A stretch of 64,000 bases of DNA. Source: Candidatus Spongiisociaceae bacterium (GTDB taxonomy: Bacteria > Actinomycetota > Acidimicrobiia > Spongiisociales > Spongiisociaceae). Where the stretch lies: assembly GCA_965219685.1 (NCBI GenBank), contig CBDCOH010000002.1, positions 2,368,001 through 2,432,000 of the forward strand. The letters run 5' to 3'. Below the pieces are notes generated by a model. That model did no database searches, was not told the DNA's origin, and saw nothing but the letters and a program-made list of their open reading frames with translations. Made by a program: the position numbers and the translations under genes. This document shows, piece after piece, positions 36,815 to 64,000 of the stretch (position 1 is the stretch's first letter; every line of letters begins with the position of its first letter).

Positions 36815-36982
36815 TCAGCCGGGAGAAGCCACTCTCCCGCGACCCGGCGCGCCTATCACCTCTCCGCGCTCGTAAACCACCCGGCCCCGCAGGATCGTGC
36901 GATCGATGGCCCCGACAACCGGGCGCCCCGCGTCGGGCGTCCAACCGCACTTGCTGTGCACCAGGTCGTCGCTGATGACCTT
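36815..36982 (-). pseudogene. C-terminal remnant of a dihydroorotase/allantoinase-type amidohydrolase
   Basis: VISDDLVHSKCGWTP..G..V.G....TILRG.VVY..GEV.G.PGRGR*. Confidence 0.75.
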
Positions 36983-37203
36983 CGGAACCCGTCCTCGAGG
37001 GACTCGGAGTGCGTCACATCGGCTTCGATACCGGCAGCAATGCCTCCCGAGTTCCGGAGCCGGGCGGCGGCTCGGGCCGCGGCCCCACCGTCGACGTCCA
37101 GGACAGCTACCCGCCCACCTTCCGCGATGATGTGCTCGGCCACGGCCATCCCGATACCGCCGACCGCTCCTGTGACGACGGTCGCCCTCTCCTCGAGCGT
37201 CAC
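36983..37203 (-). pseudogene. N-terminal remnant of a short-chain dehydrogenase (SDR)
   Basis: GTG start; LEERATVVTGAVGGIG (TGxxxGIG)...VLDVD...ADVT; ends before the NNAG and YxxxK motifs. Confidence 0.8.
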
Positions 37204-37339
37204 GGCAATCCCGCTCCGGATCCGGAAAGGCTGAGGAGGGCGTGCGGCAGAGGCGCATCGTGTGTGGGATGACCTTGGATCGTGGGCAGCAACCGGCCGT
37301 CTCCGGCAGGCATCTGGACCCTGCAACTACAGTCCACAA

Positions 37340-37360
37340 CGATATCGGATCACGATATCG
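37340..37360. promoter_or_regulatory. Operator-like motif, copy 1: CGATATCG-gatca-CGATATCG
   Basis: Perfect copy in a divergent promoter region, just downstream of a TACAGT -10-like box (37328-33). Confidence 0.85.
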
Positions 37361-37394
37361 AGTGTCGAGGGCCTTGCGCGGAGGCAAGAACCGG

Positions 37395-38711
37395 ATGGAC
37401 CGCAACCCGCTGGATGTACTCGCCGACCACATACTCGAGCTCAGGTTCGAGGCGATACCCGACCAGGTGATAAGGCAGGCGAAGGCCGTCATACGCCACG
37501 ACCTGGCAGTCGGGATGCTCGGCAGCGGCACCGACGAGGCCCTTAGAGCAGTGGATTTCGCGACTTCGACGGGCAATTCGGGCTCGTCGACCGTAATCGG
37601 GCACCGGATGACACTGGCTCCGATCGACGCGGCGTTCGCCAACGCGGTGATCATGCGCTCGCTCCGGCAGGAGGATTCGATCCTCCCTTCGTTCATCCAC
37701 CCCGGTCCCATGGTCATACCCCCCGCCCTGGCGATCGCCGAAGCACGCGGGCTTGCCGGACACGAGGTGATCACCGCGGTGGTAGCGGCCTACAACGTGC
37801 TCGGAGTGTTGGCCGGATCGGAATGGACGTGGGAGAAGTGCGCCCGCACGCCTTCCCATGTATACGGCGCTTTCGGAGCGGCAGCCGTTTCGGCCCGGCT
37901 CCTGGGTCTGGACCCCGATCAGACGCGAACGGCGCTGGCTTACGCCGGTAACTACGGCGCGATGATCACCCACGGTTTCCACAACCACCAGTACGGCGTC
38001 CTGGCCCGTAACGGTATGACCGCGGCCGGACTCGGGCGAGCTAGGGCCCCTTACAGGGAAGATGCTCTCGAAGGGCCGCACGGCTTCTTCGAAGCCCAGG
38101 TCGGCGCAGTGCGGCCGAGCCTCCACGAGGACCTGCAAGGAGTCGGAAGGCGCTGGGAGATCATGACCGCCGTTCTCAAGCCCTACCCGTGCACGGCGAT
38201 CAACGTGGTACCGCTCACTCTGATTGAAGAGTTGTTGAGACGGGAAGGACTCTCCGCCGACGGGGTTGCCCGGCTGACGGTACGGAGATCGAGAGATTCG
38301 TTCCGCGTTCCCGGGATCAACGACCCTGATCCGCATGCGAAGGAGTTCGGACGGGTCAGTTCGCTGCAGTTCAACCTGGCGGTCATGCTGCTGCGAGGAT
38401 CGGTGACACCGGAGTCTCATAGGGATCCCGACCTCGCCGAACGTGCCGCCGGCCTGGCGGGCATCATCCGGATCGAGCCTTCCGCCTCGACGGACCTACT
38501 CCACCACGAGGTACTCCTGACCGCATCGGACGGACGCCGGTTCCGTGTCTCCGGAGGTGCGGAGGTCCTGGCCGCGCCCCGACCGGTGGCCATCGCGCGG
38601 ATGTATCCCGGGAGCGACTCGACGGCAGCCCGGATCGAACGGATGGTCTCCGAGGTCCATCAACTCGACTCGGCCGACCGCGTAACCGGGTTGATGCGAT
38701 GCGTCGCGTGA
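37395..38711 (+). CDS. MmgE/PrpD family protein (divergent)
   Basis: L.FEAIP..V...AK, AAFANA, ED...HPG..VIPPALA, ARNG..AA, LEG..GFF, KPYPC. Confidence 0.9.
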   Translation: MDRNPLDVLADHILELRFEAIPDQVIRQAKAVIRHDLAVGMLGSGTDEALRAVDFATSTGNSGSSTVIGHRMTLAPIDAAFANAVIMRSLRQEDSILPSFIHPGPMVIPPALAIAEARGLAGHEVITAVVAAYNVLGVLAGSEWTWEKCARTPSHVYGAFGAAAVSARLLGLDPDQTRTALAYAGNYGAMITHGFHNHQYGVLARNGMTAAGLGRARAPYREDALEGPHGFFEAQVGAVRPSLHEDLQGVGRRWEIMTAVLKPYPCTAINVVPLTLIEELLRREGLSADGVARLTVRRSRDSFRVPGINDPDPHAKEFGRVSSLQFNLAVMLLRGSVTPESHRDPDLAERAAGLAGIIRIEPSASTDLLHHEVLLTASDGRRFRVSGGAEVLAAPRPVAIARMYPGSDSTAARIERMVSEVHQLDSADRVTGLMRCVA

Positions 38712-38811
38712 CCACCGGCGCAGCGGGGCCGGGTCGTAACGACCGGTCGGGAGTCACGGCCGCGCTGTTAGCGTGCCCCGAACCCGAACCCCGGCGCGGG
38801 GAGGAGCCGCC

Positions 38812-39180
38812 ATGATGGAAGACCTGATCGCGAATACCTACGACGTGATCGACGCCAACCCGGTCCTCGCGGGCGAGACCTTCCGGGTAACCCACCTTCA
38901 ACGAACCGAGAGATCCACGAGCGCGGTGTGCTCCATCGAGGCGGGCGGGGGCCTACGACCGCACATCCACCACCACCACGACGAGGTCATCGTCTTCCTG
39001 GAAGGCGAAGCCGACTTCCGCCTCGGCGACGAGATACGGCAGGTGAGAGCCGGTGATGTGGCGGTCGTACCGGCCGGAACCGCACACGCCACTATGAACG
39101 CCGCCACCCGTGTGGTCATAGCCGCGGTCTTCGCTCCCAACTTCGATCCCGAGAACGAGGACCGCGAGTACGTCGACTGA
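38812..39180 (+). CDS. Cupin domain protein
   Basis: PHIH..HDE....LEG, AGD..VVPAG..H; GAGGAG RBS. Confidence 0.9.
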   Translation: MMEDLIANTYDVIDANPVLAGETFRVTHLQRTERSTSAVCSIEAGGGLRPHIHHHHDEVIVFLEGEADFRLGDEIRQVRAGDVAVVPAGTAHATMNAATRVVIAAVFAPNFDPENEDREYVD

Positions 39181-39348
39181 CCGTCTGGGTGTCAGGTGAT
39201 TGTACGGATTCCTGACATCTTCGACTGCCGAAGTCGACCGGCATAACGAGCAAGGTGCGGTAGCCGTTTACGGCAACCGGCAACCCGCACCTGACTGCCG
39301 CCGCGGCCGGTTGGGAAGCGAGCCGGTGGGCCACGTAGTGTGGTGCCC

Positions 39349-40554
39349 ATGGCATCGACCGCGCCACCGGATAGGCCGCGCTCCGCCGACGTCTCCCCGG
39401 CAGATCCCGGGTTCCTGGAGCGGATCATCGGTCTGCGGCGAGAATTGCACCGCCATCCGGAACTCTCGGAGCAGGAGGAGCGGACTGCCGGTCTCATCTG
39501 CTCGTTTCTGGAGGAACTCGGAATCCCTTACCGGGCCGGGGTCGGAGGGAACGGTGTGGTGGCGCGTTTGAGCGGCCGCAAGGTCGGGCCCGTGGTGGCC
39601 CTTCGAGCCGATATCGATGCCTTGCCGATACGGGAGGAGACCGGGCTCCCGTTCGCTTCGGCGGTCGAAGGCGTGATGCACGCCTGCGGCCACGACGGCC
39701 ACACCGCCATGCTGATGGGCGCGGCGATTCTGCTCCGCGCAGAGCCTCCCCCTTACCCGGTCCGGCTCCTGTTCCAGCCGGCCGAGGAGCGCGGGAGCGG
39801 GGCGCGGATGATGATCGCGGACGGGGCTATCGACGGGGTATCCGCCGTCTTCGGCGGACACCTGGACATCAACTACCCGGTCGGAACGCTGGTGGTCAGC
39901 GATGGAGCGGTCAACGCAGCGTCCGACTACTTCACGATCCGTATCAAGGGCAGGACGGGACACGCCGCCAGGCCTCACCAAGCGGTGGACGCAGTGGTTG
40001 CCGGGGCGTCGCTGGTGAGCGCACTCCAGACGATCGTCGCTCGAGAGGTAGACCCAGCAGATCCGGCGGTGCTCACGGTGGGAAGTTTCACCGCCGGAAC
40101 CGCCGAGAACGTAATCGCCGGCGCCGCCAGGCTCACTGGGACCATCCGTACCCTCGACCCCGAGGTACGCCGGCATCTCTGTGACTCGGTGGTCCGGATG
40201 GCCACCGCGGTCGCGCAGTTGCATGGCTGCGCGGTGGAACCGGAGGTGCGAGAGGGTAACCCACCAGTCGTCAATGCCCCGGCTATTACGCGGTTGGCCC
40301 GGCAGGCCGCGTCGGCGGTCGTGGAGGACACCGGCTTGCTACAGATGCACACCGTCAACATGGGATCCGAGGACTTCGGGCGATACCTGGAGAGGGTTCC
40401 CGGCTGTTACATCCGGTACGGCGGTCTCACGCCCGGTCATGAACCGTCGCCAGCCCATTCGGGCCGTTTCGACTTCGATGAGCGGGCGCTCGGCATCGGG
40501 GCGCGATGGCTCGACAAGGTCGCACGGGTAGCGGGCGAGGAACTGGCCCGCTAG
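39349..40554 (+). CDS. M20D-family amidohydrolase (hippurate/N-acyl-amino acid hydrolase-like)
   Basis: RRELHRHPELS, LRADIDALP, MHACGHDGH, FQPAEE, GSEDF. Confidence 0.95.
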   Translation: MASTAPPDRPRSADVSPADPGFLERIIGLRRELHRHPELSEQEERTAGLICSFLEELGIPYRAGVGGNGVVARLSGRKVGPVVALRADIDALPIREETGLPFASAVEGVMHACGHDGHTAMLMGAAILLRAEPPPYPVRLLFQPAEERGSGARMMIADGAIDGVSAVFGGHLDINYPVGTLVVSDGAVNAASDYFTIRIKGRTGHAARPHQAVDAVVAGASLVSALQTIVAREVDPADPAVLTVGSFTAGTAENVIAGAARLTGTIRTLDPEVRRHLCDSVVRMATAVAQLHGCAVEPEVREGNPPVVNAPAITRLARQAASAVVEDTGLLQMHTVNMGSEDFGRYLERVPGCYIRYGGLTPGHEPSPAHSGRFDFDERALGIGARWLDKVARVAGEELAR

Positions 40555-40558
40555 CTAC

Positions 40559-41671
40559 TCAACCCTCCAGTGCTCGCGTGACCGCCGCCATGAAACGGCG
40601 TCCCTCGGCGCCATCGATTATGCGATGATCGTAGGAGAGGCTGAGGGGAAACTGCCGGACGGCGGCAATGGCGCCATCCCGGACCACCGGACGCGGTTCG
40701 GCACGCCCGACCGAGAGGATGGCGGTGGTTCCGTAGGGGATGATCGGAGTCCCGCGTCCCCCACCGACCGCCCCGATGTTCGAGACGGTGAAGGTCTGGC
40801 CCCTTAGTTCATCAACCTGCAAGGTCCGTTCCTTCGCGCCAGAGGCCAGCCTGCGCACCTCTGCGCCCAGATCCTCGATCGAGAGGGTGTCGGCGTCATG
40901 GACTACCGCAACCATCAGCCCGTCGGGGGTGTCGACCGCGAATCCGATGTCGTAGAACCGGCGTTCGACGATGTCATTACCTTCCACCGCTGAGTTGAAT
41001 CCGGGAAACCGAACCAGCAAGGGGACGAGGCGGGCGATGAGGAGAGCCTCGACCGGTGGCTTGCCGAGACGTCTCCGTTCAGCCATGAGCCGGTCCGAAT
41101 CCGCGTGCCCGTAGGTGGTCACGTGGGGTATCTCCCGCCAGGACCGGGACAGGCTCTCTGCGATTGTCCTGCGGAGGCGGGCCATCGGTATCCGGACCGC
41201 AGGACGGGCGGAGGCGGCCGCCCGCACATCATCTTCGGTGATGCGTCCTAGCGGACCGGTTCCGCGAACCCCTGAGAGGTCCACCCCCAACTCGTCGGCC
41301 AGTTTCCTCACGTAGGGCAGGGCGAGCGGCCGGCGGGGTACTCCAGGATCCGCCTCCGGGAGAACACCTACCACAGGCGCTGACCGCCGCTCAGCGGGCG
41401 GCGGCGCTCCGGGTGCGTGGTCCCAACGCTCACCGGGCTCCCCGATCACCGCGAGGAGCGAATCGACCTCCACCGTTTCCCCGTCCTCCCCGCCTCGGTG
41501 CAACAGAACACCCGCGAACGGCGAAGGTATGTCGACGATCGCCTTGTCGGTCTCCACCTCGACCAGCGGTTCGTCGAGCCCGACCCGTGCGCCCACCTCC
41601 ACGTACCAGGAGACGATCGTCGCCTCCACGAGACCCTCGCCCACGTCGGGAAGGTGGAATTCTCGCGCCAT
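40559..41671 (-). CDS. 2-oxoacid dehydrogenase E2 (dihydrolipoamide acyltransferase)
   Basis: Single lipoyl domain ETDKA, E3-binding GTGP.GRI, catalytic DHRIIDG. Confidence 0.95.
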   Translation of the reverse strand: MAREFHLPDVGEGLVEATIVSWYVEVGARVGLDEPLVEVETDKAIVDIPSPFAGVLLHRGGEDGETVEVDSLLAVIGEPGERWDHAPGAPPPAERRSAPVVGVLPEADPGVPRRPLALPYVRKLADELGVDLSGVRGTGPLGRITEDDVRAAASARPAVRIPMARLRRTIAESLSRSWREIPHVTTYGHADSDRLMAERRRLGKPPVEALLIARLVPLLVRFPGFNSAVEGNDIVERRFYDIGFAVDTPDGLMVAVVHDADTLSIEDLGAEVRRLASGAKERTLQVDELRGQTFTVSNIGAVGGGRGTPIIPYGTTAILSVGRAEPRPVVRDGAIAAVRQFPLSLSYDHRIIDGAEGRRFMAAVTRALEG

Positions 41672-41672
41672 C

Positions 41673-42647
41673 TCAGCCCGCCAGAGCGTGCTCGGCAGCA
41701 GAAACGATCCGGGACACCGATGGCATGTAGTGACGTTCTGCGAGCCGCAGTGGAACCACGACATCCCACCCCGTCACTCTCTGCACCGGCGCTCGCAGCG
41801 AATAGAGGGCCCGTTCCTGTATCAGCGCCACGATCTCGGCGCCGTAACCGCCGGTCAGGGGTGCCTCGTGAACGATGACGGCGCGGCCGGTCTTCTCGAC
41901 CGACGAGACGATCAGATCCGCGTCGAGGGGCACGAGGGTTCTCACGTCGACCACCTCGGCGCTCACGCCCTCTTCAGCCAGCTTGGCAGCGGCCTCCCTC
42001 GTCTCGCGCATCATCGCGCCGTAGGAGACGAGTGATACATCGGAGCCCGGTTGCTCGACTACGGCCGAGCCGATGGCCGTCGTGTAGCGGCCACTCGGCA
42101 CCTCGCCCCGGGCCGCCCGGTACAGACGGATCGGCTCCATGAATATGACCGGATCCGGGTCGTCCACCGCCGCGAGGAGCAGACCCTTCGCGTTCTCGGG
42201 CGTGGAGGCAACCACGACCTTGAGGCCCGGAATGTGAGCGTAGATGGCTTCTGTCGACTCGCTGTGGTGCTCGGCGGCTCCTATCCCCGCTCCGAAGGGA
42301 AGCCGGATCACCATGGGGGCGGTGAATCGGTGCCGGGATCGGTTCCGGATCCTGGCAACGTGGTTGATCACCTGGTCGTAGGCCGGATAGGAGAAACCCA
42401 TGAACTGGATCTCGACTATGGGCCGGATTCCGGCAACCGCCATCCCGAAGGCAGCTCCGACTATCCCCGACTCCGCCACCGGGGTGTCGATGACCCGCTC
42501 CGTTCCATGCTTGCGGGCCAGCCCGTCGGTGATCCGGAACACGCCTCCGGTCGTCCCGATGTCCTCCCCCATCACCACCACCCGGGGATCCGACAGGGCG
42601 TGGTCGAGCGCCGAGTTGAGAGCCTGCGCCATGGTCATGACGCTCAT
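41673..42647 (-). CDS. 2-oxoacid (pyruvate/branched-chain) dehydrogenase E1 beta
   Basis: GEDIG..GGVFR, DTPVAESGI, EIQFMGF, EHHSES. Confidence 0.96.
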   Translation of the reverse strand: MSVMTMAQALNSALDHALSDPRVVVMGEDIGTTGGVFRITDGLARKHGTERVIDTPVAESGIVGAAFGMAVAGIRPIVEIQFMGFSYPAYDQVINHVARIRNRSRHRFTAPMVIRLPFGAGIGAAEHHSESTEAIYAHIPGLKVVVASTPENAKGLLLAAVDDPDPVIFMEPIRLYRAARGEVPSGRYTTAIGSAVVEQPGSDVSLVSYGAMMRETREAAAKLAEEGVSAEVVDVRTLVPLDADLIVSSVEKTGRAVIVHEAPLTGGYGAEIVALIQERALYSLRAPVQRVTGWDVVVPLRLAERHYMPSVSRIVSAAEHALAG

Positions 42648-43684
42648 CGCCAGCCCCTCTCCGCCAGGCAACGCTGGAGCAACAACGGCGCGGTCGGCTC
42701 CTGGTAGGTGGCGTCGAAGATTTCCCCGGCGCTGAACGACGCTAGTGACTCAGCCTCGGCAACGGCATCCTCGATCCGCTGTGATGCCCGATCCTGCAGG
42801 TCGGCCTGCCACCTGTCGTTCCAGGCTTCCCGCCGCTGCAGCCATAGGCGAACCCGCTCCAGGGGGTCCTTGCCGCGCCACGCGGTGACATCCTCCTGCT
42901 CCCGGTACCGTCGATGGTCGTCTGCAGTGGTGTGGCCGTGAATCCGGTACGTGAGGGCCTCGATCAGCGTCGGGCCCTCACCGGCGCGAGCCCTTGCGAC
43001 CGCCTCGCCGACAACTTCTTCGACGGCCAGGACATCGTTGCCATCGACCATGACTCCCGGAAAGCCGTAGGCCACGGCCTTCTGGGCGATGGTTTCGGAC
43101 GCCGTCTGCCGGGACCGGGGCATGGAGATGGCCCAACCGTTGTTCTGGCACAGGAACACCGTGGGGAGGCGGTAGACGCCCGCGAAGTTCATCGCCTCGT
43201 GGAAGTCCCCCTCCGAGGTGGCCCCGTCCCCGAACATCGTCAGGGCAACGGCATCGGTTCCCATCAGCTTCTCCGCCCAGGCGACCCCCACCGCATGGAT
43301 CATGTGCCCGCCCACCGTTATGGAGGGCGGGAGGACTTTGACACCCTCCGGTGGATGACCGCCCCGCTCGTCGCCCATTCTGGTTAGGAGCAGGTTCGTC
43401 CATGGGTAGCCGTGGAAGCGCATCGCGGCGGCATCCCGGTAGCTGGCCACCAGCCAGTCCCCCTTAGCCAGCGGTGCGACCGCCCCGACCTGGGCAGCCT
43501 CCTGGCCCTCGTAAGGTGCATAGGTGGCGAGGCGACCCTGGCGCTGGAGGGCCGACGCCTTGTGGTCGTAGAGTCGCGCCTCCACGAGCGCTGCGTACCG
43601 GGCGCGCACGGTGCGCACGTCGGGCGCTGTGCGGCCGGTCAGAACACCGTCCGGAGCGAGTATCTGGCGAGGCTTGAGGTGCAT
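42644..43684 (-). CDS. 2-oxoacid (pyruvate/branched-chain) dehydrogenase E1 alpha
   Basis: LQRQGR, GQEAAQVG, TPP motif GDGATSEGD...QNN, HTTADD. Confidence 0.96.
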   Translation of the reverse strand: MHLKPRQILAPDGVLTGRTAPDVRTVRARYAALVEARLYDHKASALQRQGRLATYAPYEGQEAAQVGAVAPLAKGDWLVASYRDAAAMRFHGYPWTNLLLTRMGDERGGHPPEGVKVLPPSITVGGHMIHAVGVAWAEKLMGTDAVALTMFGDGATSEGDFHEAMNFAGVYRLPTVFLCQNNGWAISMPRSRQTASETIAQKAVAYGFPGVMVDGNDVLAVEEVVGEAVARARAGEGPTLIEALTYRIHGHTTADDHRRYREQEDVTAWRGKDPLERVRLWLQRREAWNDRWQADLQDRASQRIEDAVAEAESLASFSAGEIFDATYQEPTAPLLLQRCLAERGWR

Positions 43685-43706
43685 GTTCGGGAAGGCTACA
43701 GTGTGT

Positions 43707-43727
43707 CGATAACGAATCACGATATCG
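43707..43727. promoter_or_regulatory. Operator-like motif, copy 2: CGATAACG-aatca-CGATATCG
   Basis: Between the divergent E1-alpha and ferredoxin genes; TACAGT at 43697-702. Confidence 0.82.
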
Positions 43728-43796: not shown

Positions 43797-44045
43797 ATGG
43801 CGGACATCGTTGAGCGCAAGGTGGGTGACCTGACCCTCCGGATTGATCGCGACCTGTGCGTCGGATTCGAGCATTGCACGGACGAGTCGCCCACCGCCTT
43901 CCGGCTCGGTGACTACGACGTGGTCGAGTTCGCCGACCCCGAACAGGAGGACAGGTCACGCCTGATCACGGCATCCGAGGTCTGTCCCGTGGACGCACTT
44001 ACCGTGGTCGACTCGGAGGGCAACCAACTGGTTCCGCGAGCCTGA
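43797..44045 (+). CDS. Single-cluster ([3Fe-4S]-type) ferredoxin
   Basis: IDRDLCVGFEHC...CPVDAL. Confidence 0.88.
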   Translation: MADIVERKVGDLTLRIDRDLCVGFEHCTDESPTAFRLGDYDVVEFADPEQEDRSRLITASEVCPVDALTVVDSEGNQLVPRA

Positions 44046-56237: not shown

Positions 56238-57584
56238 ATGCCCTCAAGCGGTCCATCGGTAAGCGAGAGACTGGCCCGCCATGTCGTCTCGCTGCGTTTC
56301 GATGATCTGCCCACCGAGATCGTGGAACGCGCCAAGGACCACCTGGTGCACCATGTGGGTCTCGGAATACAGGGCCGGAACAGTGAGTACGGGAAGAAGG
56401 CGCGCCGAAACGCGGCCCGGCTCAGCGCGACCGGCGGGCGGTTCTCGGCCATCGGCGAGAAGCCGGCCCTAGGACTGCTCGACGCGGTGTTCGTGAACTG
56501 CCTCTACATGCACCACAGCGGCCAGGACGATTCGGAGTCTGCCGGCACCCATCCCGGGGTCCTCGTGTACCCGGCGGCTCTGAACCTCTCGCAGGACCGC
56601 ACCGTCAGCGGGAAGGAGTTCCTGGTGGCTTGCGTGATCGGCTACGACGTGTCGATGGTCCTGAGCGCCGGAACTTGGGCATGGACCGCCCCCGCGCCCA
56701 GGAGAAGCAATGCGATCTTCGGGCCGGTCGCGGTCGCCGCCACCGCCGCCCGCCTGCTCGGCCTTTCCGAGTCACAGACCGTGGATGCGCTGGGCCAGGC
56801 CTGCCATGGAGCGCTGGGTCTGATCGAAGGAACCCGGTTCATATGGGTGGTGTATCCGTGGGAGTGCCGGGCGGGAGTGTTCGCCGCCACCCTCGCCGAG
56901 TCGGGCCTCCGGGCCGCGCCGAGCATGATCGAAGGCGACTTCGGCCTTTACCGGACGCTGCTCCAGGAGGTCCCGTCCGGCATCGACGAGAACCTCGCCA
57001 CTCTGGGCTCCTACTTCCGCATCGTGGAAGCGCGAGTCAAGAAGTACAGCGCCAGCAACCTGAACGCTGGCATCCTCGACGCGACGAAGAGGGTGTGCGA
57101 GGCGAAGTCGATCCGGCCGGAGCATGTGGAGTCGATCCTGATCGAACTGCCCGACAGCCGCAGGATACGGGAGAAGCGCATGGAGGAGAACTTCTCCAGG
57201 TACGTGGATCTCGCCTCGCGGTGCGGCTCGCTGCGCTTCCTGACGGCGTTGATCCTCCGCGACGGCGACCTCGACAGCCGGATCTACACCGACCCCATCC
57301 CCGAGGACCTCCGGGCGCTGATCGACTCGATCTCCCTGCGCTTCCTGGACGAGGCACCGTCCAATTACTACGGGAGGGTCACCATACGGACCACCGACGG
57401 CGGGGCGGAAAGGGTCGAGTACGGGCGCGACGGCGTCGACTATCCGGAAGTGGACCGGGAGGGATGGATGTCCAGGTGCGTGGGCGACGATCCCTCGGTC
57501 GACGTTGATCGTCTCCTGCAGATCGTCAGCGAACTGGAGCAGCTACCCGACGCATCGGTCCTCCTCGAAGCCCTCTCGGGCTGA
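56238..57584 (+). CDS. MmgE/PrpD family protein (divergent)
   Basis: L.FDDLP..IVERAKDHL, QDD...HPG, EGDFGLY, KKY; AAGGAGG RBS. Confidence 0.9.
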   Translation: MPSSGPSVSERLARHVVSLRFDDLPTEIVERAKDHLVHHVGLGIQGRNSEYGKKARRNAARLSATGGRFSAIGEKPALGLLDAVFVNCLYMHHSGQDDSESAGTHPGVLVYPAALNLSQDRTVSGKEFLVACVIGYDVSMVLSAGTWAWTAPAPRRSNAIFGPVAVAATAARLLGLSESQTVDALGQACHGALGLIEGTRFIWVVYPWECRAGVFAATLAESGLRAAPSMIEGDFGLYRTLLQEVPSGIDENLATLGSYFRIVEARVKKYSASNLNAGILDATKRVCEAKSIRPEHVESILIELPDSRRIREKRMEENFSRYVDLASRCGSLRFLTALILRDGDLDSRIYTDPIPEDLRALIDSISLRFLDEAPSNYYGRVTIRTTDGGAERVEYGRDGVDYPEVDREGWMSRCVGDDPSVDVDRLLQIVSELEQLPDASVLLEALSG

Positions 57585-57708: not shown

Positions 57709-58440
57709 ATGACCGGCGCCCGAGGTGGAAGGACCGTCTACGGGCTGGCGCTCGGCGTCATCATGCTCGACACCAAGTTCCCGCGCCTCCGGGGCGATGT
57801 CGGCAATGCCCGCACCTGGCCCTTCCCCGTTCGTTACCGGATCGTGGAGGGGGCCATCCCCGAGCGTATGGCCCAGGCCGATCCCGATCCCGAGTTACTG
57901 GCTCCCTTCTTGGATGCCGCCCGTGCGCTGGAGTCGGAAGGCGTGCGAGCCATCTGCACCAGCTGCGGGTTCCTGGCGGTCAACCAGCCGGAGTTGGCGT
58001 CGGCCGTGGAGGTACCGGTCTTCTCGTCGCCGCTCCTCCAGGTTCCGATGGCGGCCGCCGCGGCGGGGGGCAGGAAGGTGGTGATCCTGACCGCCCGGAC
58101 CGTGCTCACCGAACAGCACTACCGGGGAGCGGGCTGGTCCTCGCAGGATTTGTCCGTGGTCCAGATGGCGCCCCCCGAGGACAGCCACTTCTACACCACC
58201 TTCGTGGGTAACTCGCCCGAGGCGGACAGCCGGATACTCGAGCGGGAACTTGCCGACCTGGCCAGGAGGGTCGTCTCCGAACACCCCGACGCCGGGGCGA
58301 TCGTGATGGAGTGCGCCAACTTCCCGCCGTTCGGCCAGATCGTCCGGTCGATCACCGGCCTGCCGGTCTTCGACCTGTACACGATGGGGATGTACGCCTA
58401 CCTGGCGAGTTCCGGGACCGAGTTCCCGCGAACCCTGTAA
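57709..58440 (+). CDS. Asp/Glu/hydantoin racemase superfamily protein
   Basis: LDT.FPR..GD.GN..T.PFPV, TSCGF and MECANF (two catalytic Cys). Confidence 0.9.
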   Translation: MTGARGGRTVYGLALGVIMLDTKFPRLRGDVGNARTWPFPVRYRIVEGAIPERMAQADPDPELLAPFLDAARALESEGVRAICTSCGFLAVNQPELASAVEVPVFSSPLLQVPMAAAAAGGRKVVILTARTVLTEQHYRGAGWSSQDLSVVQMAPPEDSHFYTTFVGNSPEADSRILERELADLARRVVSEHPDAGAIVMECANFPPFGQIVRSITGLPVFDLYTMGMYAYLASSGTEFPRTL

Positions 58441-58444: not shown

Positions 58445-59044
58445 GTGAACGCACCTAAGGAGGGATCGACCGAACCGCGGCGGGACCGGCTGGGGATCGG
58501 CGCCATCGCCACGGTCTTCTTCAGGATGGGGATCGTGGCGTTCGGAGGGCTTCTCCTGCTGCTCGTATTGATCGAGCGGGAGTTGGTGGACAAGCGCCCG
58601 GCGCTGACCAAGCGGCAGATCACCGAAGCCGTCACCTACACGCGCCTCCTTCCCGGTTCGGGTGGCCCTCTCGTGGTCTCCTACCTCGGCTACGTGCTGA
58701 GGGGGGTCGGCGGGTCGGGGGTCGCCACCCTGATGTATCTCCTTCCCGGGATACTCGTCATGACCGGGTTGGCGGTGGGTTTCGTCGCCATCTCCACCCT
58801 GCCCTTGCTCAGCCCCGCCATCGAAGGCCTCCTGGCTGCCGTCGTCGGCATCCAGTCGGTATACCTCTACCGGTTCGCCCGGAAGGCGATCATCGACGCG
58901 GTCACGGCCACCATCCTCGTAGCCGGGCTGTGCGCGACGCTCCTCCTGGATGTCAGCGCGCCGCTCGTCGTCCTGCTGGCCGGAATGGTGGGGATCGTCC
59001 TGTTCACCAAGAGCCTCGGTGCGGAAGTTGCGGATGATGGCTGA
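58445..59044 (+). CDS. Short-chain CHR transporter subunit 1
   Basis: FFRMG..AFGG, ELV.K, LLPG. Confidence 0.85.
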   Translation: MNAPKEGSTEPRRDRLGIGAIATVFFRMGIVAFGGLLLLLVLIERELVDKRPALTKRQITEAVTYTRLLPGSGGPLVVSYLGYVLRGVGGSGVATLMYLLPGILVMTGLAVGFVAISTLPLLSPAIEGLLAAVVGIQSVYLYRFARKAIIDAVTATILVAGLCATLLLDVSAPLVVLLAGMVGIVLFTKSLGAEVADDG

Positions 59045-59597
59045 ACTGCTCGACCTGTTCTGGCAGTTCATGCTGTTCAGCCTTCTCGCCTTCGGTGGAG
59101 GGGGAACCGTATTGGGCCTGGTGGACCGGGTGGCCGTGGCGGACAAGGGATGGATCACGCCGGCGGAGTTCTCGGCGGCGGTCGGCTTCACTTTCATCAC
59201 TCCGGGACCGATCCTCGTTCTGGCGCCCTTCGTCGGCTATCTCGTGGCGGGAGCGCCGGGCGCGGTGGTCGCCACCTTCGGCGTATTCCTGGCCCCTTGG
59301 ACACTGGCCATGGGATCGGCCCACCGGCTCCGGCAGTACCTCCACCATCCCCGGCTCCGGGCCTTCGGCAAGGGCGCGGGACCGGCCATCGTCGGCCTGT
59401 TCAGCCTCGCCGTGCTCACCATCGCCAGATCCAGCATCTCCAACGTGGCCATGGTCGCCGTGGCGCTGGTAGCAGGGGTCCTGATGACGAGGACGAAGCT
59501 CCATCCGATCCTCATCCTGGTGGGCGGAGCGTTGGCGGGCCTGGTGCTTGGCCTCACCGGCCTCGGCGACGCGATACCGGAGGTCCGGATCCCCTAG
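59034..59597 (+). CDS. Short-chain CHR transporter subunit 2
   Basis: LAFGGG, GWIT..EF, TPGP, FVGY. Confidence 0.87.
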   Translation: MMAELLDLFWQFMLFSLLAFGGGGTVLGLVDRVAVADKGWITPAEFSAAVGFTFITPGPILVLAPFVGYLVAGAPGAVVATFGVFLAPWTLAMGSAHRLRQYLHHPRLRAFGKGAGPAIVGLFSLAVLTIARSSISNVAMVAVALVAGVLMTRTKLHPILILVGGALAGLVLGLTGLGDAIPEVRIP

Positions 59598-59649: not shown

Positions 59650-60918
59650 CTACCTGCGGTCGAGGATCCGGAAGCGGGAAGGGCGGAAGGGGGCCATGTC
59701 CACGGATGGATCCTCGTTCGATACGAGTTGGCCGATGATCTCGCCGGTGATCGCGGCCAGGGTGAACCCGATGTGGCCGTGGCCGTAGGCGAGGAAGACG
59801 TTGGCATGGCGGGGCGCCCGGCCGATGACCGGAAGGGAGTCGGGGTGCGACGGGCGGTAGCTCATCCATCTCCTCGCCCCGTCCGTCCGCAACTCAGGAA
59901 ACACCAGCCTGGTGGCCTCGATCAGGCGGTCGGCGCGCCGGTAGTCGGGCGGGGCTTCGAGTCCGGCCAACTCGTCGGTGCCGGCCAGGCGGAGGCCGTC
60001 GGGAAGGGGGGTCATCGCGAAGTGATGGTCCATCGAGACGATGGGAAAGGGGAGTTCGACCCCCGGATGCGGCAGGTCAACCCCGTAACCGCGCTCCGTG
60101 TCGAGGGGGGTCGCGAAGCCGAGCATCCTCGTGAGGTGCTTGGACCAGGCCCCGGCAGCGATCACCACCAGGTCGGCGGGAAGCGCCCCGCTCGTCGTCT
60201 CGACGGCGACTATCCGATCTCCCGACCGGACGAACCCCGAGACCTCCCCCGCCACGCGACGACCCCCCGCGGCGACCATGCGGTCCGTAAGCACCGTGCA
60301 CAGTCGTAGCGGGTCGGCCCAAGGGGCCTTGGGAATGTAGACGCCGTGGCTGAAACGGCCCGCCAGCACCTCGGACAGTCCCGCCACTCCGTCCGCGTCA
60401 AGGACCCGCATGTCGATGCCCCGCCTCCGCCTCGTCTCGATGGCGAAGGCCGCCTTGGCGAACACCGCGTCGGTCCCATAACCCAGTAGATGCCCGCCTT
60501 CGATGAGAGCGCCGCCGGAGTCATGCACGGGTAGCACCTCCTCCCACGCCCGGAGTGCCTGCTTGACCAGACGAGCGAGCGCGATGGAGGCGCGCTCGAC
60601 ACGCGCCGGCCTCGCCGAGGCGATGAACCGAAGCAGCCATGGCACCATCCGCGGTAGGTAGCGCCACCGGATCGCGAGGGGTGAGTACGGGTCGAGCAGC
60701 ATCCGGGGCACCGACCGGATGACCCCGGGAGTCGCCGTCGGGAGGCAGTTTCCCACCGAGAACAGACCGGCGTTGTGACCTGAGGCTCCGTCGCCGGGAG
60801 CGCCCCTGTCCACGACGGTCACCTCGTAGCCACGCCGGAGCAGATGCATCGCGCAGCAGAGTCCCACCGTTCCACCGCCTACTACGACAGCAAGCCTTGG
60901 ATCCCCGGACGATGTCAT
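59650..60918 (-). CDS. FAD-dependent D-amino acid dehydrogenase (DadA-like)
   Basis: GGGTVG, ASGHNAG, AAGAWS, RGY, RP..PDSLPVIG, GHGH.G.T. Confidence 0.92.
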   Translation of the reverse strand: MTSSGDPRLAVVVGGGTVGLCCAMHLLRRGYEVTVVDRGAPGDGASGHNAGLFSVGNCLPTATPGVIRSVPRMLLDPYSPLAIRWRYLPRMVPWLLRFIASARPARVERASIALARLVKQALRAWEEVLPVHDSGGALIEGGHLLGYGTDAVFAKAAFAIETRRRRGIDMRVLDADGVAGLSEVLAGRFSHGVYIPKAPWADPLRLCTVLTDRMVAAGGRRVAGEVSGFVRSGDRIVAVETTSGALPADLVVIAAGAWSKHLTRMLGFATPLDTERGYGVDLPHPGVELPFPIVSMDHHFAMTPLPDGLRLAGTDELAGLEAPPDYRRADRLIEATRLVFPELRTDGARRWMSYRPSHPDSLPVIGRAPRHANVFLAYGHGHIGFTLAAITGEIIGQLVSNEDPSVDMAPFRPSRFRILDRR

Positions 60919-60926
60919 CGGCCCTC

Positions 60927-60947
60927 CGATATTGGGATGCGATATCG
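60927..60947. promoter_or_regulatory. Operator-like motif, copy 6: CGATATTG-ggatg-CGATATCG
   Basis: In the divergent promoter between the dadA-like and CCG genes. Confidence 0.82.
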
Positions 60948-61000: not shown

Positions 61001-62134
61001 ATGGGTTCCGGGTTCTCCCCCAAAGAGTTCTATGGGGGCATGGCGAACAGCCTCGCCATGCAGGTGGCACGGGACGAGGTGGCATGGACGGATCGCCACC
61101 GGACGCCCGACGGCCCCGTGGACACGCTGCTCGCGTTCGGATGCGCCGTCCAGCACACACCGCACCTGATGCGCGCCGCAACGAGGGTCTTCGACGTGCT
61201 CGGGATCGAGCACCGGGCAGTCGCCGGGCGCCAGTACTGCTGCGGCCGGCCCTTCCGGCGGACCGGGAAGGTCAAGGCCGCCGACAACATAGTGGCCAGT
61301 TCCTACGCACGCTTCGCGTCCTACCGTCCGCAAACGATGGTGCAGTGGTGCGGGGCGTGCATGATCACCTATATCGACGTCGCCAGCCGCCGCATGACCA
61401 CCCCGTTCGAGGTGATCCACGTCTCCACTTACATGGCCCGTGTGCTGCGCGAGCGGGCGGGCAGCCTCCCGTGGCGGGAGACCGACCGGCTAACCGTCCT
61501 CGTCCACCGCCATGTCCAGCCCAAGGTCCCCAACGATCGCTCATCCGAACACCGCGGAAAGCCGGGCCGTGACCAGGTCACCGACGCCACGATCGAGGCG
61601 GTCGACGAGATCCTCTCGCGCATCCCGGGAGTCGAGAACCTGGGGGTCGTCGAACCGCCATCGAGCGGCGCTCCCTGTGATCTCAAGAAGGTCAACGACC
61701 GGTTCGTGGGCTTGGGTGATATCAGTTCCGACGCCCATCGGGCGATCCTTGGGCATCTGGCGGAGCAGGCCGATCGCACCGGGGCAGAGATCGTCGTGAC
61801 CCCTTACCACGCCTGCCAGAAGCAATGGTCCAAGCTGGCGAGCCACAAGCTGGGCGTGCGCCACTGGATGTCCGTACTCGCCGATGCCCTCGGGGTCGGC
61901 GTCGAGGACCGCTACCAGGCCTACTGGCGCCTGGCCGATCCGGAGGCCATCGTGAAGTCATCCAGCCCCGCTTGGAGTTCGTGGGGGATCAGTTCCGAAG
62001 ATGCCTACGAGCACGCTCGGACCCACTTCACCGCAGCCTTCTCGGACAGCATCCACGACTGCGAGTGCGGCGGCTCAGGCTGCGGAGCGCCCACTCCGGA
62101 GTTGGTCTGGCCACTGGTAAGCGGAGCCCGTTAG
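61001..62134 (+). CDS. Stand-alone CCG-domain (HdrB/GlpC-like) Fe-S protein
   Basis: FGC, YCCGRP, CGAC, second degenerate repeat PC...HAC, C-terminal CECGGSGC; GGAGG RBS. Confidence 0.78.
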   Translation: MGSGFSPKEFYGGMANSLAMQVARDEVAWTDRHRTPDGPVDTLLAFGCAVQHTPHLMRAATRVFDVLGIEHRAVAGRQYCCGRPFRRTGKVKAADNIVASSYARFASYRPQTMVQWCGACMITYIDVASRRMTTPFEVIHVSTYMARVLRERAGSLPWRETDRLTVLVHRHVQPKVPNDRSSEHRGKPGRDQVTDATIEAVDEILSRIPGVENLGVVEPPSSGAPCDLKKVNDRFVGLGDISSDAHRAILGHLAEQADRTGAEIVVTPYHACQKQWSKLASHKLGVRHWMSVLADALGVGVEDRYQAYWRLADPEAIVKSSSPAWSSWGISSEDAYEHARTHFTAAFSDSIHDCECGGSGCGAPTPELVWPLVSGAR

Positions 62135-62151
62135 GCCCTACACGGTAGGTT

Positions 62152-63366
62152 TCAGACCAGGTCGAGGACGGGGAGTTCCATACCGGCCTCCAAGGTGGCC
62201 TTCCAGGAGGTGTCGCAAGCCGCCCCTGCTCCGGCGGAGCGCGCACCGGCGACCGCCTCGACGCAGTTGCCCTCGCAGGGACAGCGCTGGACCCGGGACG
62301 CGTACTCGGGCATGAAGTGATGCTTCACGATGTGTCGAGCCTCCTTCTCATCCATCCCCCACGACTCCCAGTGGCGCCTCGTCTGCTCGAAGATCATGTC
62401 CGGATCCCCCAGCTTCCAGAGGGTCTGGAACCGGTCGGGAATCCTGATCCCCAGCGCTTCTGCGAGCAGCGACTGGTAGTGGAGAACGGGAAGACGGTCG
62501 CTCCCGAACTTGCACCACTCCCGGTGACACATGTGGTGGTGGGTCAGGATGGCATCGGCCCCGACCGCATCGGCCTGGGCCTGAAGATCCTGCTGGACTT
62601 CCAGGTATTGCTCCGGGGTGATGTCGTTGAGAACGCTTGGTTCTCCCGGACCCTTGGTCGCGCACGGCTGGCCGAGTGCGGGACTCTCCACGATACCCAC
62701 GTACTCGATCCCCGGGATCAACTCGAGCGTCCTGATCACCGCCGACTTGGCTGCTTCCTTGGTGGGATGGACCTCGGCGCCCTCGGCATGGAGCATCACC
62801 CGGCGGGGTATGGACTTGCGCCACGGTATGCCGTCGCCCATCTCGACCAGGAGGTCGGCCAGGTAGTCCGTTATATGGATCACCTCGAAAGGGGCCTGGC
62901 CGCGCTGGTCCGAGATGACCTTCACGTGGTAGTCGAACTCGATGAGGCACGAACCGCAGCACTGCACGTTGACCTCCGGCTGCCACGAAGCGAACCTGTC
63001 GATGGCCCGCGCCGCCATCGCGTCGCCGACTTGGCCCTTGCCGAAGCGTTGGAAGGGCCTGCCGCAGCAGTACTTGTTACCGGCTACCGCGACGAAGTCG
63101 ACCCGGAGCGCCTCGAACAGGGCGACCTGGGTGAGCATCAGGTGCGGCGTGTTCTGGACGCCGCAACTCAGGTTCAGGACCACCTCCGCCCCTTCGGCCG
63201 GTTTCGAGTACCGCTCCAGCCAGGTGACCTCGTCTCGCGAGATCTGGAGGCGTTCCGAGTTGAGGTGATCACGATAGAAGCGGGTGAAGCTGAACTCCTT
63301 GGCCCGCGAGAGATCGAAGTCCTCCCCTGCCGCGTTCTTCGTGACCATCCGGTCGTCAACCACCAT
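62152..63366 (-). CDS. Stand-alone CCG-domain Fe-S protein (paralog of 61001-62134)
   Basis: LSC.VQ.TPHLM, YCCGRPF, CCGSC, PC...HMC, C-terminal CPCEGNC. Confidence 0.78.
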   Translation of the reverse strand: MVVDDRMVTKNAAGEDFDLSRAKEFSFTRFYRDHLNSERLQISRDEVTWLERYSKPAEGAEVVLNLSCGVQNTPHLMLTQVALFEALRVDFVAVAGNKYCCGRPFQRFGKGQVGDAMAARAIDRFASWQPEVNVQCCGSCLIEFDYHVKVISDQRGQAPFEVIHITDYLADLLVEMGDGIPWRKSIPRRVMLHAEGAEVHPTKEAAKSAVIRTLELIPGIEYVGIVESPALGQPCATKGPGEPSVLNDITPEQYLEVQQDLQAQADAVGADAILTHHHMCHREWCKFGSDRLPVLHYQSLLAEALGIRIPDRFQTLWKLGDPDMIFEQTRRHWESWGMDEKEARHIVKHHFMPEYASRVQRCPCEGNCVEAVAGARSAGAGAACDTSWKATLEAGMELPVLDLV

Positions 63367-63426
63367 CGATCCGTTCCTTTTCGTCTCGCTTCAATCTAGT
63401 AGGGAGCTCGCTCCGACGCCCGGCCA

Positions 63427-64000
63427 TCAGCGGGGCGCCGGGCCCTTCGAGAGCTGCTCCAAACCCCTGCGTATGGCCGCACGCTCCGCACTGGCGCCGA
63501 CCCTTCCCAGCGCCAGGCCGTGCCGTTCCCGCACCAACTCGATCCGCTCGTCCAATGGAAGCAACGGGCAGTTCTGACACAGCCGACCCCGGCGATCGTC
63601 CAACCGGTAGGTGAGACAGCACGCATGGCGGCGGTGGATGCCGTGGGGGAACATCGGGTCGTCGATCTCATCCCACACCACGAGGCCTCGCAGGGGGTTG
63701 GGTCCCGGTACCCCCGGTATGGCCGGAGCGCCCAGCAGGGCTCGGCGGTCCTCCACGTAGGGTCGGCCGGCCCCGCCTAGGTACTCGTCGGCCGAGTCCG
63801 AGACCATCCCCACCCATTCGGCCGCGTTGGTCCACAGCAGACGTTCCGAGACCCGCGTCAGGCTCCGGACAACCTCGAAGAAGGGCGCCAGGTGCCGGCC
63901 GTACAGGGTCTCCCAGGCATGCGCCCTGACCTCGGCCAGAGTTGCAGCGGCTTGGGCGTCCACCTTCCACGGCGTGAGCCGCTCGCCGGTCACCACTGCT
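63427..64000 (-). CDS. FhuF-like ferric-siderophore reductase / (2Fe-2S)-binding protein (5' end outside the window)
   Basis: S.RLLW.N and C-terminal RHACCLTYRL...LCQNCP (CC-x11-CxxC). Confidence 0.85.
   Translation of the reverse strand, partial: AVVTGERLTPWKVDAQAAATLAEVRAHAWETLYGRHLAPFFEVVRSLTRVSERLLWTNAAEWVGMVSDSADEYLGGAGRPYVEDRRALLGAPAIPGVPGPNPLRGLVVWDEIDDPMFPHGIHRRHACCLTYRLDDRRGRLCQNCPLLPLDERIELVRERHGLALGRVGASAERAAIRRGLEQLSKGPAPR

Follow-up and report, generated by a model that had tools for sequence, protein, structure and literature searches.

The DNA analysed here is a window of 64,000 nt from a Candidatus Spongiisociaceae bacterium (assembly GCA_965219685.1, contig CBDCOH010000002.1, positions 2,368,001 to 2,432,000), whose genome, referred to as G000, spans 4.42 Mb and is 96.7% complete. 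The window has a G+C content of 64–69%, and its right-hand part holds a gene island that combines an NAD(P)-dependent opine dehydrogenase (ODH), several MmgE/PrpD-family proteins and an Opp-type importer under one recurring operator. The co-regulated unit extends over ~37.3–84.7 kb in window-equivalent coordinates (~47 kb), of which the window contains the left 60%. Five further operator sites lie just past the window end, indicating that the unit continues for another ~20 kb and that the window cuts the finding off. An initial annotation of positions 36815 to 64000 had proposed a pathway for the import, de-metallation and catabolism of an opine or aminopolycarboxylate metal chelate. Our analysis favours a substrate-inducible catabolic island, in which an opine-like amino or imino polycarboxylate would be imported, epimerised, cleaved at its C-N bond and the resulting 2-oxoacid oxidised, a reading to which we would give an even chance. 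The sequence data show the gene families, the operator and its conservation, the co-distribution of the genes and the coupling within operons; the regulator, the catabolic direction, each enzymatic step and the class of substrate are inferred.

Operator sites and genes of the locus

A repeat search of the window recovered the operator as a 22-nt direct-repeat family, in which two CGATATCG-like boxes follow each other with a 13-nt period and several sites carry a third box 13 nt further on. Six sites, all on the plus strand, were defined in this way. The first (O1, 37339–37360) lies 35 nt upstream of the gene for MmgE/PrpD family protein 1 (MmgE1) and is kept in the related genomes G004, G007 and G023. 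O2 (43706–43727) occupies the divergent E1alpha/ferredoxin promoter region and has a third box 13 nt further, O3 (44601–44622) is 43 nt upstream of OppB, and O4 (49001–49034), with three boxes (repeat at 49013), is 69 nt upstream of the binding protein. O5 (56155–56176) sits between the divergent double-MmgE/ODH and MmgE4/racemase/CHR operons, and O6 (60926–60947) between the genes for the DAO-family dehydrogenase and the Fe-S protein CCG1. A 21-nt consensus with up to three mismatches gave 10 matches in the window against 0.41 expected, a number reached by none of 100 shuffles, and nine of the ten fall inside the island region. When a scoring matrix built from the six window sites was run over the whole genome, 32 entries scored at least 16; 19 of these, corresponding to 11 distinct places, lie within ~41 kb, and the 11 best-scoring entries are all in the island region. 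Five of the places are outside the training set of the matrix (window-equivalent 65682, 67139, 73284, 75795 and 78153). The sites are 8–70 nt from the revised gene starts. The shared operator named in the initial annotation is real and serves six promoters in the window.

Coding frames were chosen by codon-position G+C, and the proteins were then scanned with Pfam and NCBIfam. For several genes, the start of the longest possible open reading frame (ORF) ran across the operator and was moved to a revised position. Central to our interpretation is a minus-strand operon that encodes a fused double MmgE/PrpD protein of 1010 amino acids (53420–56161; two Pfam stretches, 1e-68; start uncertain, 56113–56161), a CENDH-type ODH (52359–53429; Octopine_DH 138.8 bits, cut-off 30) and, as its last gene, a MOSC-like protein (51727–52362). 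The start of the ODH gene overlaps the stop of the fusion by 10 nt and the MOSC-like gene directly follows, so that the three are expected to be made together. Divergent from this operon are MmgE/PrpD family protein 4 (MmgE4; 56238–57584, plus strand; Pfam, revised start), a two-Cys protein of the Asp/Glu-racemase superfamily of PRK07475 type (57709–58440, plus; 256 bits, cut-off 231), and the N-type (58445–59044, plus) and C-type (59034–59597, plus; revised start) halves of a short-chain CHR transporter, both recognised by Pfam and NCBIfam. The importer consists of the permeases OppB (44665–45654; revised start) and OppC (45641–46819) and the ATPases OppD (46785–47858) and OppF (47855–48907; joined to OppD by an ATGA overlap), all on the plus strand and recognised by Pfam and NCBIfam. 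They are followed by a family-5 solute-binding lipoprotein of 749 amino acids (49103–51352, plus; SBP_bac_5 158.7 bits, cut-off 32.4).

To the left of the importer, MmgE1 (37395–38711, plus; MmgE_PrpD_N 1e-39; start moved to an ATG behind GGAGG) precedes a small cupin (38773–39180, plus; Cupin_2 1.3e-12) and an M20 amidohydrolase of the TIGR01891 subfamily (39340–40554, plus; 369.7 bits, under the CpsA and DoeB2 cut-offs). On the minus strand are the E2 component of a 2-oxoacid dehydrogenase (40559–41671; lipoyl, E3-binding and catalytic domains, revised start) and its E1 beta (41673–42647; Pfam and NCBIfam, revised start) and E1 alpha (42644–43684; TIGR03181 PDH_E1_alph_x, 422 bits against a cut-off of 411) subunits. 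Across the O2 promoter region are a small 4Fe-4S ferredoxin (43797–44045, plus; Fer4_15 and Fer4_13) and an IscA/ErpA-type Fe-S carrier (44082–44435, plus; TIGR00049, 60.1 bits against 58.8). At the right end of the window, a DAO-family FAD dehydrogenase (59650–60918, minus; DadA-like) is followed by two HdrB-like, Cys-rich Fe-S proteins of the CCG family, CCG1 (61001–62134, plus; Pfam, revised start) and CCG2 (62152–63366, minus), of which CCG2 is the last gene of a ChrA2-FhuF-CCG2 operon. The 3' part of the FhuF-like gene occupies 63427–64000 on the minus strand, and the gene continues to window-equivalent position 64461.

Each gene family listed in the initial annotation was found by Pfam or NCBIfam between 37.2 and 64.0 kb, and several assignments had to be narrowed. 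The "Opp/Nik-type importer" holds at the family level, with the CntA (36.8 bits against 800) and NikA (34 against 393) models far from their cut-offs. The "D-amino-acid dehydrogenase" belongs to the DAO family (214.5 bits against 27.9) and misses the DadA cut-off of PRK00711 (205.3 against 383), and the "MOSC protein" shows similarity over positions 9–119 of 120, contains a Cys within an NPC motif, and stays under the Pfam cut-off (17.9 bits against 22.7, E 0.0033). The limits given to the stretch stood only in part: the genes between them are real, the end cuts the FhuF-like gene, and the ORF at the start (36815–37774, minus strand) is not a gene, as its NCBIfam matches are confined to residues 264–315 and reach no equivalog cut-off. 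What lies there is the remnant of a cyclic amidohydrolase of the dihydroorotase/allantoinase/hydantoinase family (36815–36985, minus), reduced to its last ~55 codons. At the equivalent place in G007 the gene is intact (537 amino acids; L013:2173–3786, minus strand) and divergent from MmgE1, and in G023 it is intact as judged by tblastn spacing, with split tblastn matches in both genomes. Because the amidohydrolase is whole in these relatives and only its tail is left in G000, G000 has lost one island gene.

Past the window end, the co-regulated genes encode ChrA2, a PadR-family regulator, an F420-type LLM oxidoreductase, a four-helix membrane protein, a Bcr/CflA-type MFS protein and a third CCG protein. 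Beyond these lie a DapD paralogue (303 bits for NF008808, cut-off 204), a DapL/DapC-like aminotransferase, a benzoylformate-decarboxylase-like thiamine pyrophosphate (TPP) enzyme and an ACAD, then a fifth MmgE/PrpD gene, a second racemase, the large and small subunits of AcnX and a third racemase, and finally three tandem Ldh_2 genes, with a trypsin-like peptidase at the island edge. The dapD and aminotransferase genes are additional to a second pair elsewhere in the genome. At the right border (~84.7 kb, window-equivalent), housekeeping-looking genes for an O-methyltransferase, DNA polymerase III delta' and TopA resume.

The left flank (28370–35494, minus strand) is made up of ordinary conserved genes for Hpt, TilS, a Zincin_2 peptidase, an MpaB/Lcp-family oxygenase, an ECF-type sigma factor, an acyltransferase and a TrkA-domain potassium channel, the last three of which are syntenic in G004. 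The left 28 kb of the island lie between two full-length ChrA genes (35510–36754 and window-equivalent 64407–65654) that point the same way and share 72.5% identity. The island-less genome G002 has a single ChrA, which resembles one about as much as the other (77% and 79%).

Regulation and inheritance of the island

The operator is kept at orthologous promoters in G004, G007 and G023. Gene order from MmgE1 to the trypsin-like gene is common to G007 and G023, and G004 follows it with some genes missing or in pieces. Among 41 genomes (G000 and 40 relatives), ODH orthologues with 71–94% identity occur in four relatives, G003, G004, G007 and G023; three more relatives have homologues of 35–39% identity, and the remaining matches cover the N-terminal Rossmann domain only. 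Orthologues of MmgE4, of all three racemase copies and of PadR are found in exactly the five genomes that have the ODH. The gene-neighbourhood co-occurrence that the initial annotation had put forward as a check is therefore present, with ODH, MmgE4, racemase and PadR in the same 5 of 41 genomes, these being kin and not independent. Its treatment of the genes as one functional unit likewise agrees with the common operator, kept at orthologous places in three other genomes. These sequence comparisons indicate that the island forms one conserved regulon, defined by its operator and passed on as a block.

No DNA-binding family other than PadR was seen in the island. The PadR gene is co-inherited with the operator and carries a copy of it ~50 nt upstream of its own start, and a site between ChrA2 and PadR is present in G000, G004, G007 and G023. 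The protein finds its best model in the Rv3488 family (95 bits, cut-off 140). From this pattern, the operator regulon is most likely controlled by the island's own PadR-family repressor.

Genomes that lack the island show which of its genes have another history. In G002, a member of the same genus, the TrkA flank holds ChrA, E2-E1beta-E1alpha and IscA; E1alpha and IscA are separated by 85 nt, which contain no operator and leave no room for the ferredoxin. The corresponding flank of island-less G006 has IscA and the E1/E2 genes, and that of island-less G005 has IscA only. The presence of E1/E2, IscA and one ChrA beside TrkA in island-less congeners indicates that these are older residents recruited to the regulon. 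By the same comparison, the E1alpha promoter in island genomes has acquired the operator and the ferredoxin. In addition, G002 has an operator-like site (score 25.6; L107, ~5878) in the convergent IscA/O-methyltransferase gap, and G001 has a PadR copy split over two frames (C66:63520–63880) ~10 kb from TrkA. Both resemble remnants, suggesting that these lineages once had the island and lost it.

A different picture is seen in G004, the smallest of the island genomes (2.8 Mb). Here MmgE1, OppB, the binding protein, DAO, LLM, MFS and ACAD gave split or partial tblastn matches, and the search gave no match for DapD, AcnX or two of the three Ldh_2 genes. Either decay of the island or indels introduced by long-read assembly could account for this.

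Outside the clade, we scanned one genome per species (185,579 species) with a pattern derived from the ODH alignment and compared the best 80 loci. The island is present in four of them (L023–L026, from Acidimicrobiia or metagenome-assembled genomes labelled "bacterium"); among the 80, MmgE, racemase, DAO and CCG genes occur in three, and the binding protein and MOSC-like genes in four. At four of the other loci (L031, L049, L063 and L090, from metagenome-assembled genomes of Bacillota and Chloroflexota), an ODH of ~40% identity is followed in all four cases scanned by a protein of ~550 amino acids with a B12-binding domain. MutL (PF13941) is present at two of these loci, a D-Ala-D-Ala-ligase-like protein at three, an adjacent PadR at three and a CHR gene a few kb off at two. 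This is a different system and apparently an uncharacterised conserved cluster.

A metagenome scan with the racemase alignment gave a further view of the regulon. Of the 80 loci kept, 40 were at least 6 kb long, and a TPP enzyme occurs in 20 of these, Opp-type ATPases in 11 and a DAO protein in six. One distant contig, L113, of which 15.4 kb were examined, has a racemase 65% identical to that of the island together with TauE at its start, an ELFV dehydrogenase, a Zn-ADH, CCG, cupin, E2-E1beta-E1alpha, ACAD, Ldh_2, ChrA and DAO, and it repeats the island operator, a TATCG-N5-CGATA-type motif, at five intergenic places. No ODH, MmgE or PadR gene was found in these 15.4 kb. Across 601 kb of loci scanned for the motif, only five loci besides L113 gave any entry scoring at least 17. 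The operator and gene set of L113 point to an older core regulon of CCG, cupin, racemase, E1/E2, Ldh_2, ChrA and DAO, and to the later addition of the Opp system, the ODH and the MmgE/PrpD genes in Acidimicrobiia. At another locus (L116:3297–4718, minus strand), a 473-amino-acid protein joins an XRE-type helix-turn-helix (HTH) to a CCG domain; two racemase homologues, a molybdopterin oxidoreductase and an MFS protein are encoded beside it. The fusion of CCG to a DNA-binding domain is perhaps a hint that this family takes part in sensing.

A candidate catabolic pathway

The ODH aligns over its full length with CENDH of Arthrobacter sp. 1C (PDB 1BG6 chain A; residues 3–355 of 356 to 7–358, E 6e-65). 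It has an N-terminal NAD(P)-binding, Rossmann-type domain, with GSGNGG at residues 7–12, and a C-terminal Octopine_DH (PF02317) domain. His198 is invariant in all seven aligned sequences and corresponds, by alignment offset, to position 202 of the 1BG6 chain; we take this His to be the catalytic residue. In the proposed pathway, the CENDH-type ODH would open the C-N bond oxidatively; its production is coupled to that of the fused double MmgE/PrpD protein.

The MmgE/PrpD proteins are the most repeated element of the island. There are four N-domains in three genes in the window, and the whole island was counted as six domains in five genes. Against a cut-off of 32.1 bits, MmgE_PrpD_N scores 136.6, 231.6 (two stretches) and 139.3 in the window and 164.9 for the fifth gene past it, while matches to the C-domain stay under the Pfam cut-off. 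They are not PrpD 2-methylcitrate dehydratases by the equivalog model NF042438 (19.5–45.8 bits against 950), and their nearest solved relative is iminodisuccinate (IDS) epimerase (E 3.5e-12). According to a 2025 paper, which identifies one member as a methylsuccinate isomerase, the characterised MmgE/PrpD enzymes all act on a C4 1,4-dicarboxylate backbone through an enolate, and two of them are epimerases or isomerases (PMC12290011). In an alignment of five island domains, the C-terminal half of the fusion (53420–54800) carries Arg (GGLRPG) at a position that is His (HPG or HAA) in the other four; the fused protein may pair an active domain with a diverged one. We propose that these enzymes would equilibrate carboxylate-adjacent stereocentres in succinate-like 1,4-dicarboxylate moieties, jointly with the two-Cys racemase-type enzymes. 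The racemase of the window has two invariant Cys, in the motifs TSCGF and EC.NF, and a sequence search of the PDB returned no match for it or for CCG1, which the Atlas labels only as "heterodisulfide-reductase-related CCG family".

Import of the substrate, a small anionic amino or imino polycarboxylate, would be the task of the lipoprotein and OppBCDF. In the lipoprotein, a twin-arginine signal, a lipobox Cys and a linker rich in Thr and Ala precede a long binding domain of ~620 amino acids. The solved structures nearest to this protein are the ligand-free Thermotoga "OppA" 5IPW (E 1.7e-76) and the pectin-oligosaccharide binder SPH1118 7VER (E 1.2e-71), members of the same long family-5 subfamily that align with it end to end. 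Of the five SPH1118 ligand contacts that we mapped, taken from the list in PMC9314435, four are replaced in the island protein (Arg438 by Phe569, Arg466 by Thr597, Phe592 by Asn730 and Trp594 by Leu732) and one, Asn53, is retained as Asn182. The ligand specificity of SPH1118 is thus not transferable to the island protein. A specificity for pectin or sugars was rejected on the loss of these four contacts and on the lack of sugar-acid or uronate-pathway enzymes in the island.

The leading substrate candidate is an N-(carboxyalkyl) amino acid, that is, an opine-like compound, probably of host origin. Its C-N bond may also be opened by the DAO-family flavoprotein, whose nearest solved relatives are glycine and sarcosine oxidases, with electrons passing to the CCG iron-sulfur proteins. 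The freed 2-oxoacid would be oxidised by the recruited E1/E2 complex, and the modules past the window (AcnX, the three Ldh_2 proteins, the DapD paralogue, the aminotransferase, the TPP decarboxylase and the ACAD) would process imine, 2-oxo and acyl-CoA products. Much of the pathway drawn in the initial annotation can be kept in this form, as the importer, the epimerase-type enzymes, the NAD- and FAD-dependent C-N oxidoreductases and the 2-oxoacid oxidation are again read as catabolic. Its assumption that the E1/E2 complex belongs to the pathway has to be relaxed, since that complex is not dedicated to the island. Metal import and reductive release found little support, as the FhuF-like protein is the one component that speaks for them and no metal-type regulation was seen.

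The habitat of the organism is compatible with a host-derived substrate. Contigs of ~98% identity cover 30 of 30 bins of the 49.0–57.6 kb region in a run labelled sponge metagenome, one 5.5-kb contig of which has 105 differing letters, and 25 and 26 of 30 bins are covered at ~98% identity in runs labelled marine and coral metagenome, respectively. The three runs come from studies other than the possible source of the genome. Strombine has been described as the main fermentation product in a coral, where it reaches very high levels (PMC7669893). Near-identical DNA in sponge and coral runs, together with coral strombine, indicates that host opines, which are candidate substrates, are available in the habitat of the organism. 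In one less likely variant, the food would be a host fermentation opine of sponges or corals (strombine, alanopine or tauropine), with CHR exporting sulfite.

Several observations weigh against the catabolic reading. Opine dehydrogenases are reversible, so that sequence alone gives no direction, and we know of no established physiological role for CENDH itself. Simple animal opines, strombine and alanopine among them, lack a succinate-like moiety and would leave the six MmgE/PrpD domains unaccounted for. To judge by its solved relatives, the binding protein is not close to binders of opines, nickel or peptides, and none of our results identifies a substrate, in agreement with the initial annotation, which held that the sequence does not determine one. 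No step could be assigned to the three CHR transporters, the three CCG proteins, the FhuF-like protein or the MOSC-like protein, and E1/E2 and IscA persist in island-less G002 and G006 and are thus not dedicated to the island. The island is confined to one narrow clade: the other 76 of the best 80 ODH loci (34–45% identity) are without MmgE, racemase, DAO, CCG, binding protein and MOSC-like genes, and the five island genomes are close kin, so their co-distribution counts few independent events. Finally, L113 shows the operator motif without a PadR gene in the 15.4 kb examined.

Alternative readings and related systems

One alternative, which we judge unlikely, is that the island degrades an organosulfur acid (tauropine or taurine, cysteate or sulfolactate, or a sulfinate) and that the sulfite or sulfate released is exported by the three CHR transporters. 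Three CHR systems do lie in or beside the regulon, and to our knowledge the only substrates reported for CHR proteins are oxyanions of the chromate and sulfate type. Taurine dehydrogenase is a member of the DAO family, and the habitat is rich in taurine-type compounds. All three Ldh_2 proteins have L-sulfolactate dehydrogenase as their best model (172–200 bits, cut-off 500), the racemase weakly matches the cysteate racemase CuyB (E 3e-5), and the operator-bearing contig L113 starts with a TauE/SafE exporter. In the island ACAD (L021:13372–14556; window-equivalent 73372–74556), AGG replaces the catalytic YEG and no catalytic Glu is present, a variant kept in G007 and G023 and reported (PMC8360864) for 3-sulfinopropionyl-CoA desulfinase, which is also the best NCBIfam model for this protein (336.7 bits, cut-off 600). 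However, the known desulfonating routes (Xsc, SsuD, SuyAB and CuyA-type) were rejected, as no model cut-off was reached; the LLM protein is of the F420 type and not SsuD, and the TPP enzyme scores higher with benzoylformate decarboxylase (326 bits) than with Xsc (144–147 bits, cut-offs 620–676). The likeness of the ACAD to desulfinase (PDB 5AF7/5AHS) is also incomplete, since two ordinary ACADs score slightly better in a PDB search and Trp occupies the position aligned with Arg84, which we take to be important in desulfinase. All family scores that favour sulfur chemistry lie under their cut-offs, the ACAD of L113 is of the ordinary YEG type, and six MmgE/PrpD domains would be left unexplained.

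We assign a similarly small chance to the degradation of imino acids, D-amino acids or unusual small peptides, for instance peptides from cell walls or host matrix that contain hydroxyproline or D-residues, with the ODH contributing a side activity. The Opp-family importer, the M20 amidohydrolase and the trypsin-like peptidase at the island edge fit this proposal, as do the DAO-family enzyme with three racemase-type proteins and the DapD paralogue, which passes its model, with the DapL/DapC-like aminotransferase. The AcnX subunits, whose best model is cis-3-hydroxy-L-proline dehydratase (266 bits, cut-off 700), are followed by the three Ldh_2 proteins, from a family that includes pyrroline-2-carboxylate reductases. 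AcnX and Ldh_2 are nonetheless far under the equivalog cut-offs, and no proline-racemase-family epimerase, DapA-type deaminase or aldehyde dehydrogenase, such as known hydroxyproline routes employ, was found among the ORFs scanned. The coupling of ODH to MmgE/PrpD and the six MmgE/PrpD domains have no explanation in such a pathway.

The reading closest to the initial annotation, which we think improbable, is that a metallophore of opine or aminopolycarboxylate type is imported as its metal complex, that its metal is reductively released by the FhuF-like protein with CCG, ferredoxin and IscA, and that the ligand is then epimerised, cleaved and burned. The FhuF-like protein passes the Pfam FhuF model (38 bits against 25.2), keeps a C-terminal CC-x12-C-x2-C cluster, for which the spacing in E. 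coli FhuF is presumably x10, and is encoded in an operator-controlled operon with CCG2 and ChrA2. It falls short of the NCBI equivalog TIGR03951 (53.8 bits against 63.85). The Opp/Nik family of the importer and the kinship of the MmgE domains to IDS epimerase, the closest solved structure, also favour this reading. Against it, the CntA and NikA models are far under their cut-offs, and no C-N lyase of the aspartase/fumarase superfamily was present among the island ORFs scanned with Pfam, a search that did not extend to the rest of the genome. As for regulation, the best model for PadR, the Rv3488 family, speaks for the reading at 95 bits, under its cut-off of 140, whereas control is exerted through an island-specific operator and not a metal regulon, and the window has no match to an IdeR-type box, which is a weak test. 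IscA is present in island-less relatives, and the CHR transporters would have no role. A Mesorhizobium nickel-adaptation island that lists an opine dehydrogenase and a chromate transporter (PMC5315480) serves as a lead only. If this improbable reading were true, consumption of a metal-loaded chelator through Opp, FhuF-like/CCG/ferredoxin, six MmgE/PrpD domains and three two-Cys racemases acting on several stereoisomers, ODH and flavoprotein would make this the first pathway described in which a metallophore serves as a nutrient.

We consider it still less probable that the genes share a regulator and no common pathway, as in a PadR-type stress or detoxification regulon of unrelated transporters and oxidoreductases. 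PadR regulators often control detoxification and efflux, and the regulon does contain CHR and MFS efflux-type transporters and many redox proteins that cannot be assigned. Set against this are the tight co-inheritance of the block, translational coupling within operons, repeated paralogous modules of a few enzyme families and a dedicated importer with its own operators. Last, synthesis and recapture of a Cnt-like opine metallophore, with a racemase and ODH as synthase, the MFS protein as exporter, Opp as re-importer and FhuF for release, is highly improbable, because the formal parallel of the parts to cntKLM-cntABCDF-cntE, the Bcr/CflA-type MFS efflux protein and an ODH in the Pfam family of CntM are outweighed by the absence from the 96.7%-complete genome of any nicotianamine synthase (NAS)-like protein (PF03059, 0 matches, with a positive control genome) or IucA/IucC family member, by an ODH that is nearest CENDH and not a metallophore synthase, and by many dehydrogenases, a 2-oxoacid complex and an ACAD that point to breakdown, with no metal-type regulation seen.

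Should the substrate-inducible catabolic island be what we propose, it would be a large, cleanly delimited regulon in which a single operator governs ~45 genes of uncultured Acidimicrobiia associated with invertebrates. Physiological roles would also follow for most MmgE/PrpD proteins, for PRK07475 racemase-type proteins and for CENDH-type bacterial opine dehydrogenases. A host opine as substrate would establish a metabolic link between animal fermentation and symbiont nutrition, and a chelator as substrate would point to a way in which metallophores are turned over. With its conserved operator and candidate PadR repressor, the island provides a direct route to the substrate, and the older core regulon that recurs in an unrelated metagenome contig is a better functional target than the lineage-specific additions. 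In the literature searched, no paper links opine dehydrogenase with PrpD or with Acidimicrobiia, or Acidimicrobiia with sponge and PrpD, and none describes such an island.

Among characterised systems, CENDH shares with the island ODH the Pfam Octopine_DH domain and the N-terminal Rossmann fold. The island ODH is, however, clearly not an orthologue of the characterised enzyme, and it lies within a large regulon coupled to MmgE/PrpD genes, a context not described for CENDH. IDS epimerase (PDB 2HP0/2HP3) and methylsuccinate isomerase belong to the same MmgE/PrpD family as the island domains. The match to IDS epimerase is distant, one island protein is a fusion of two domains, and the aspartase/fumarase-type C-N lyase that partners the epimerase in the IDS pathway has no counterpart in the island. 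The staphylopine (Cnt) system resembles the island in uniting an Octopine_DH-family enzyme, a racemase, an Opp/Nik-family importer and an MFS efflux protein in one neighbourhood. In contrast to that system, the island genome is without CntL/NAS, has an Asp/Glu-type racemase and showed no sign of metal regulation, and its many catabolic enzymes have no Cnt counterpart; in addition to CntA, the CntC (152.5 bits against 440) and CntD/CntF (178–219 against 380–385) models remain under their cut-offs.

A further comparison is with the occ and noc opine regions of the Agrobacterium type, with their flavin opine oxidases. These regions likewise combine a dedicated importer and C-N oxidoreductases for host-made opines with a substrate-responsive regulator and a DAO-family flavoprotein. 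The island differs in that its centre is NAD-type and not OoxAB-type, its binding protein belongs to family 5 and not to the polar-amino-acid type, its regulator is PadR and not LysR, and its host would be an animal and not a plant.

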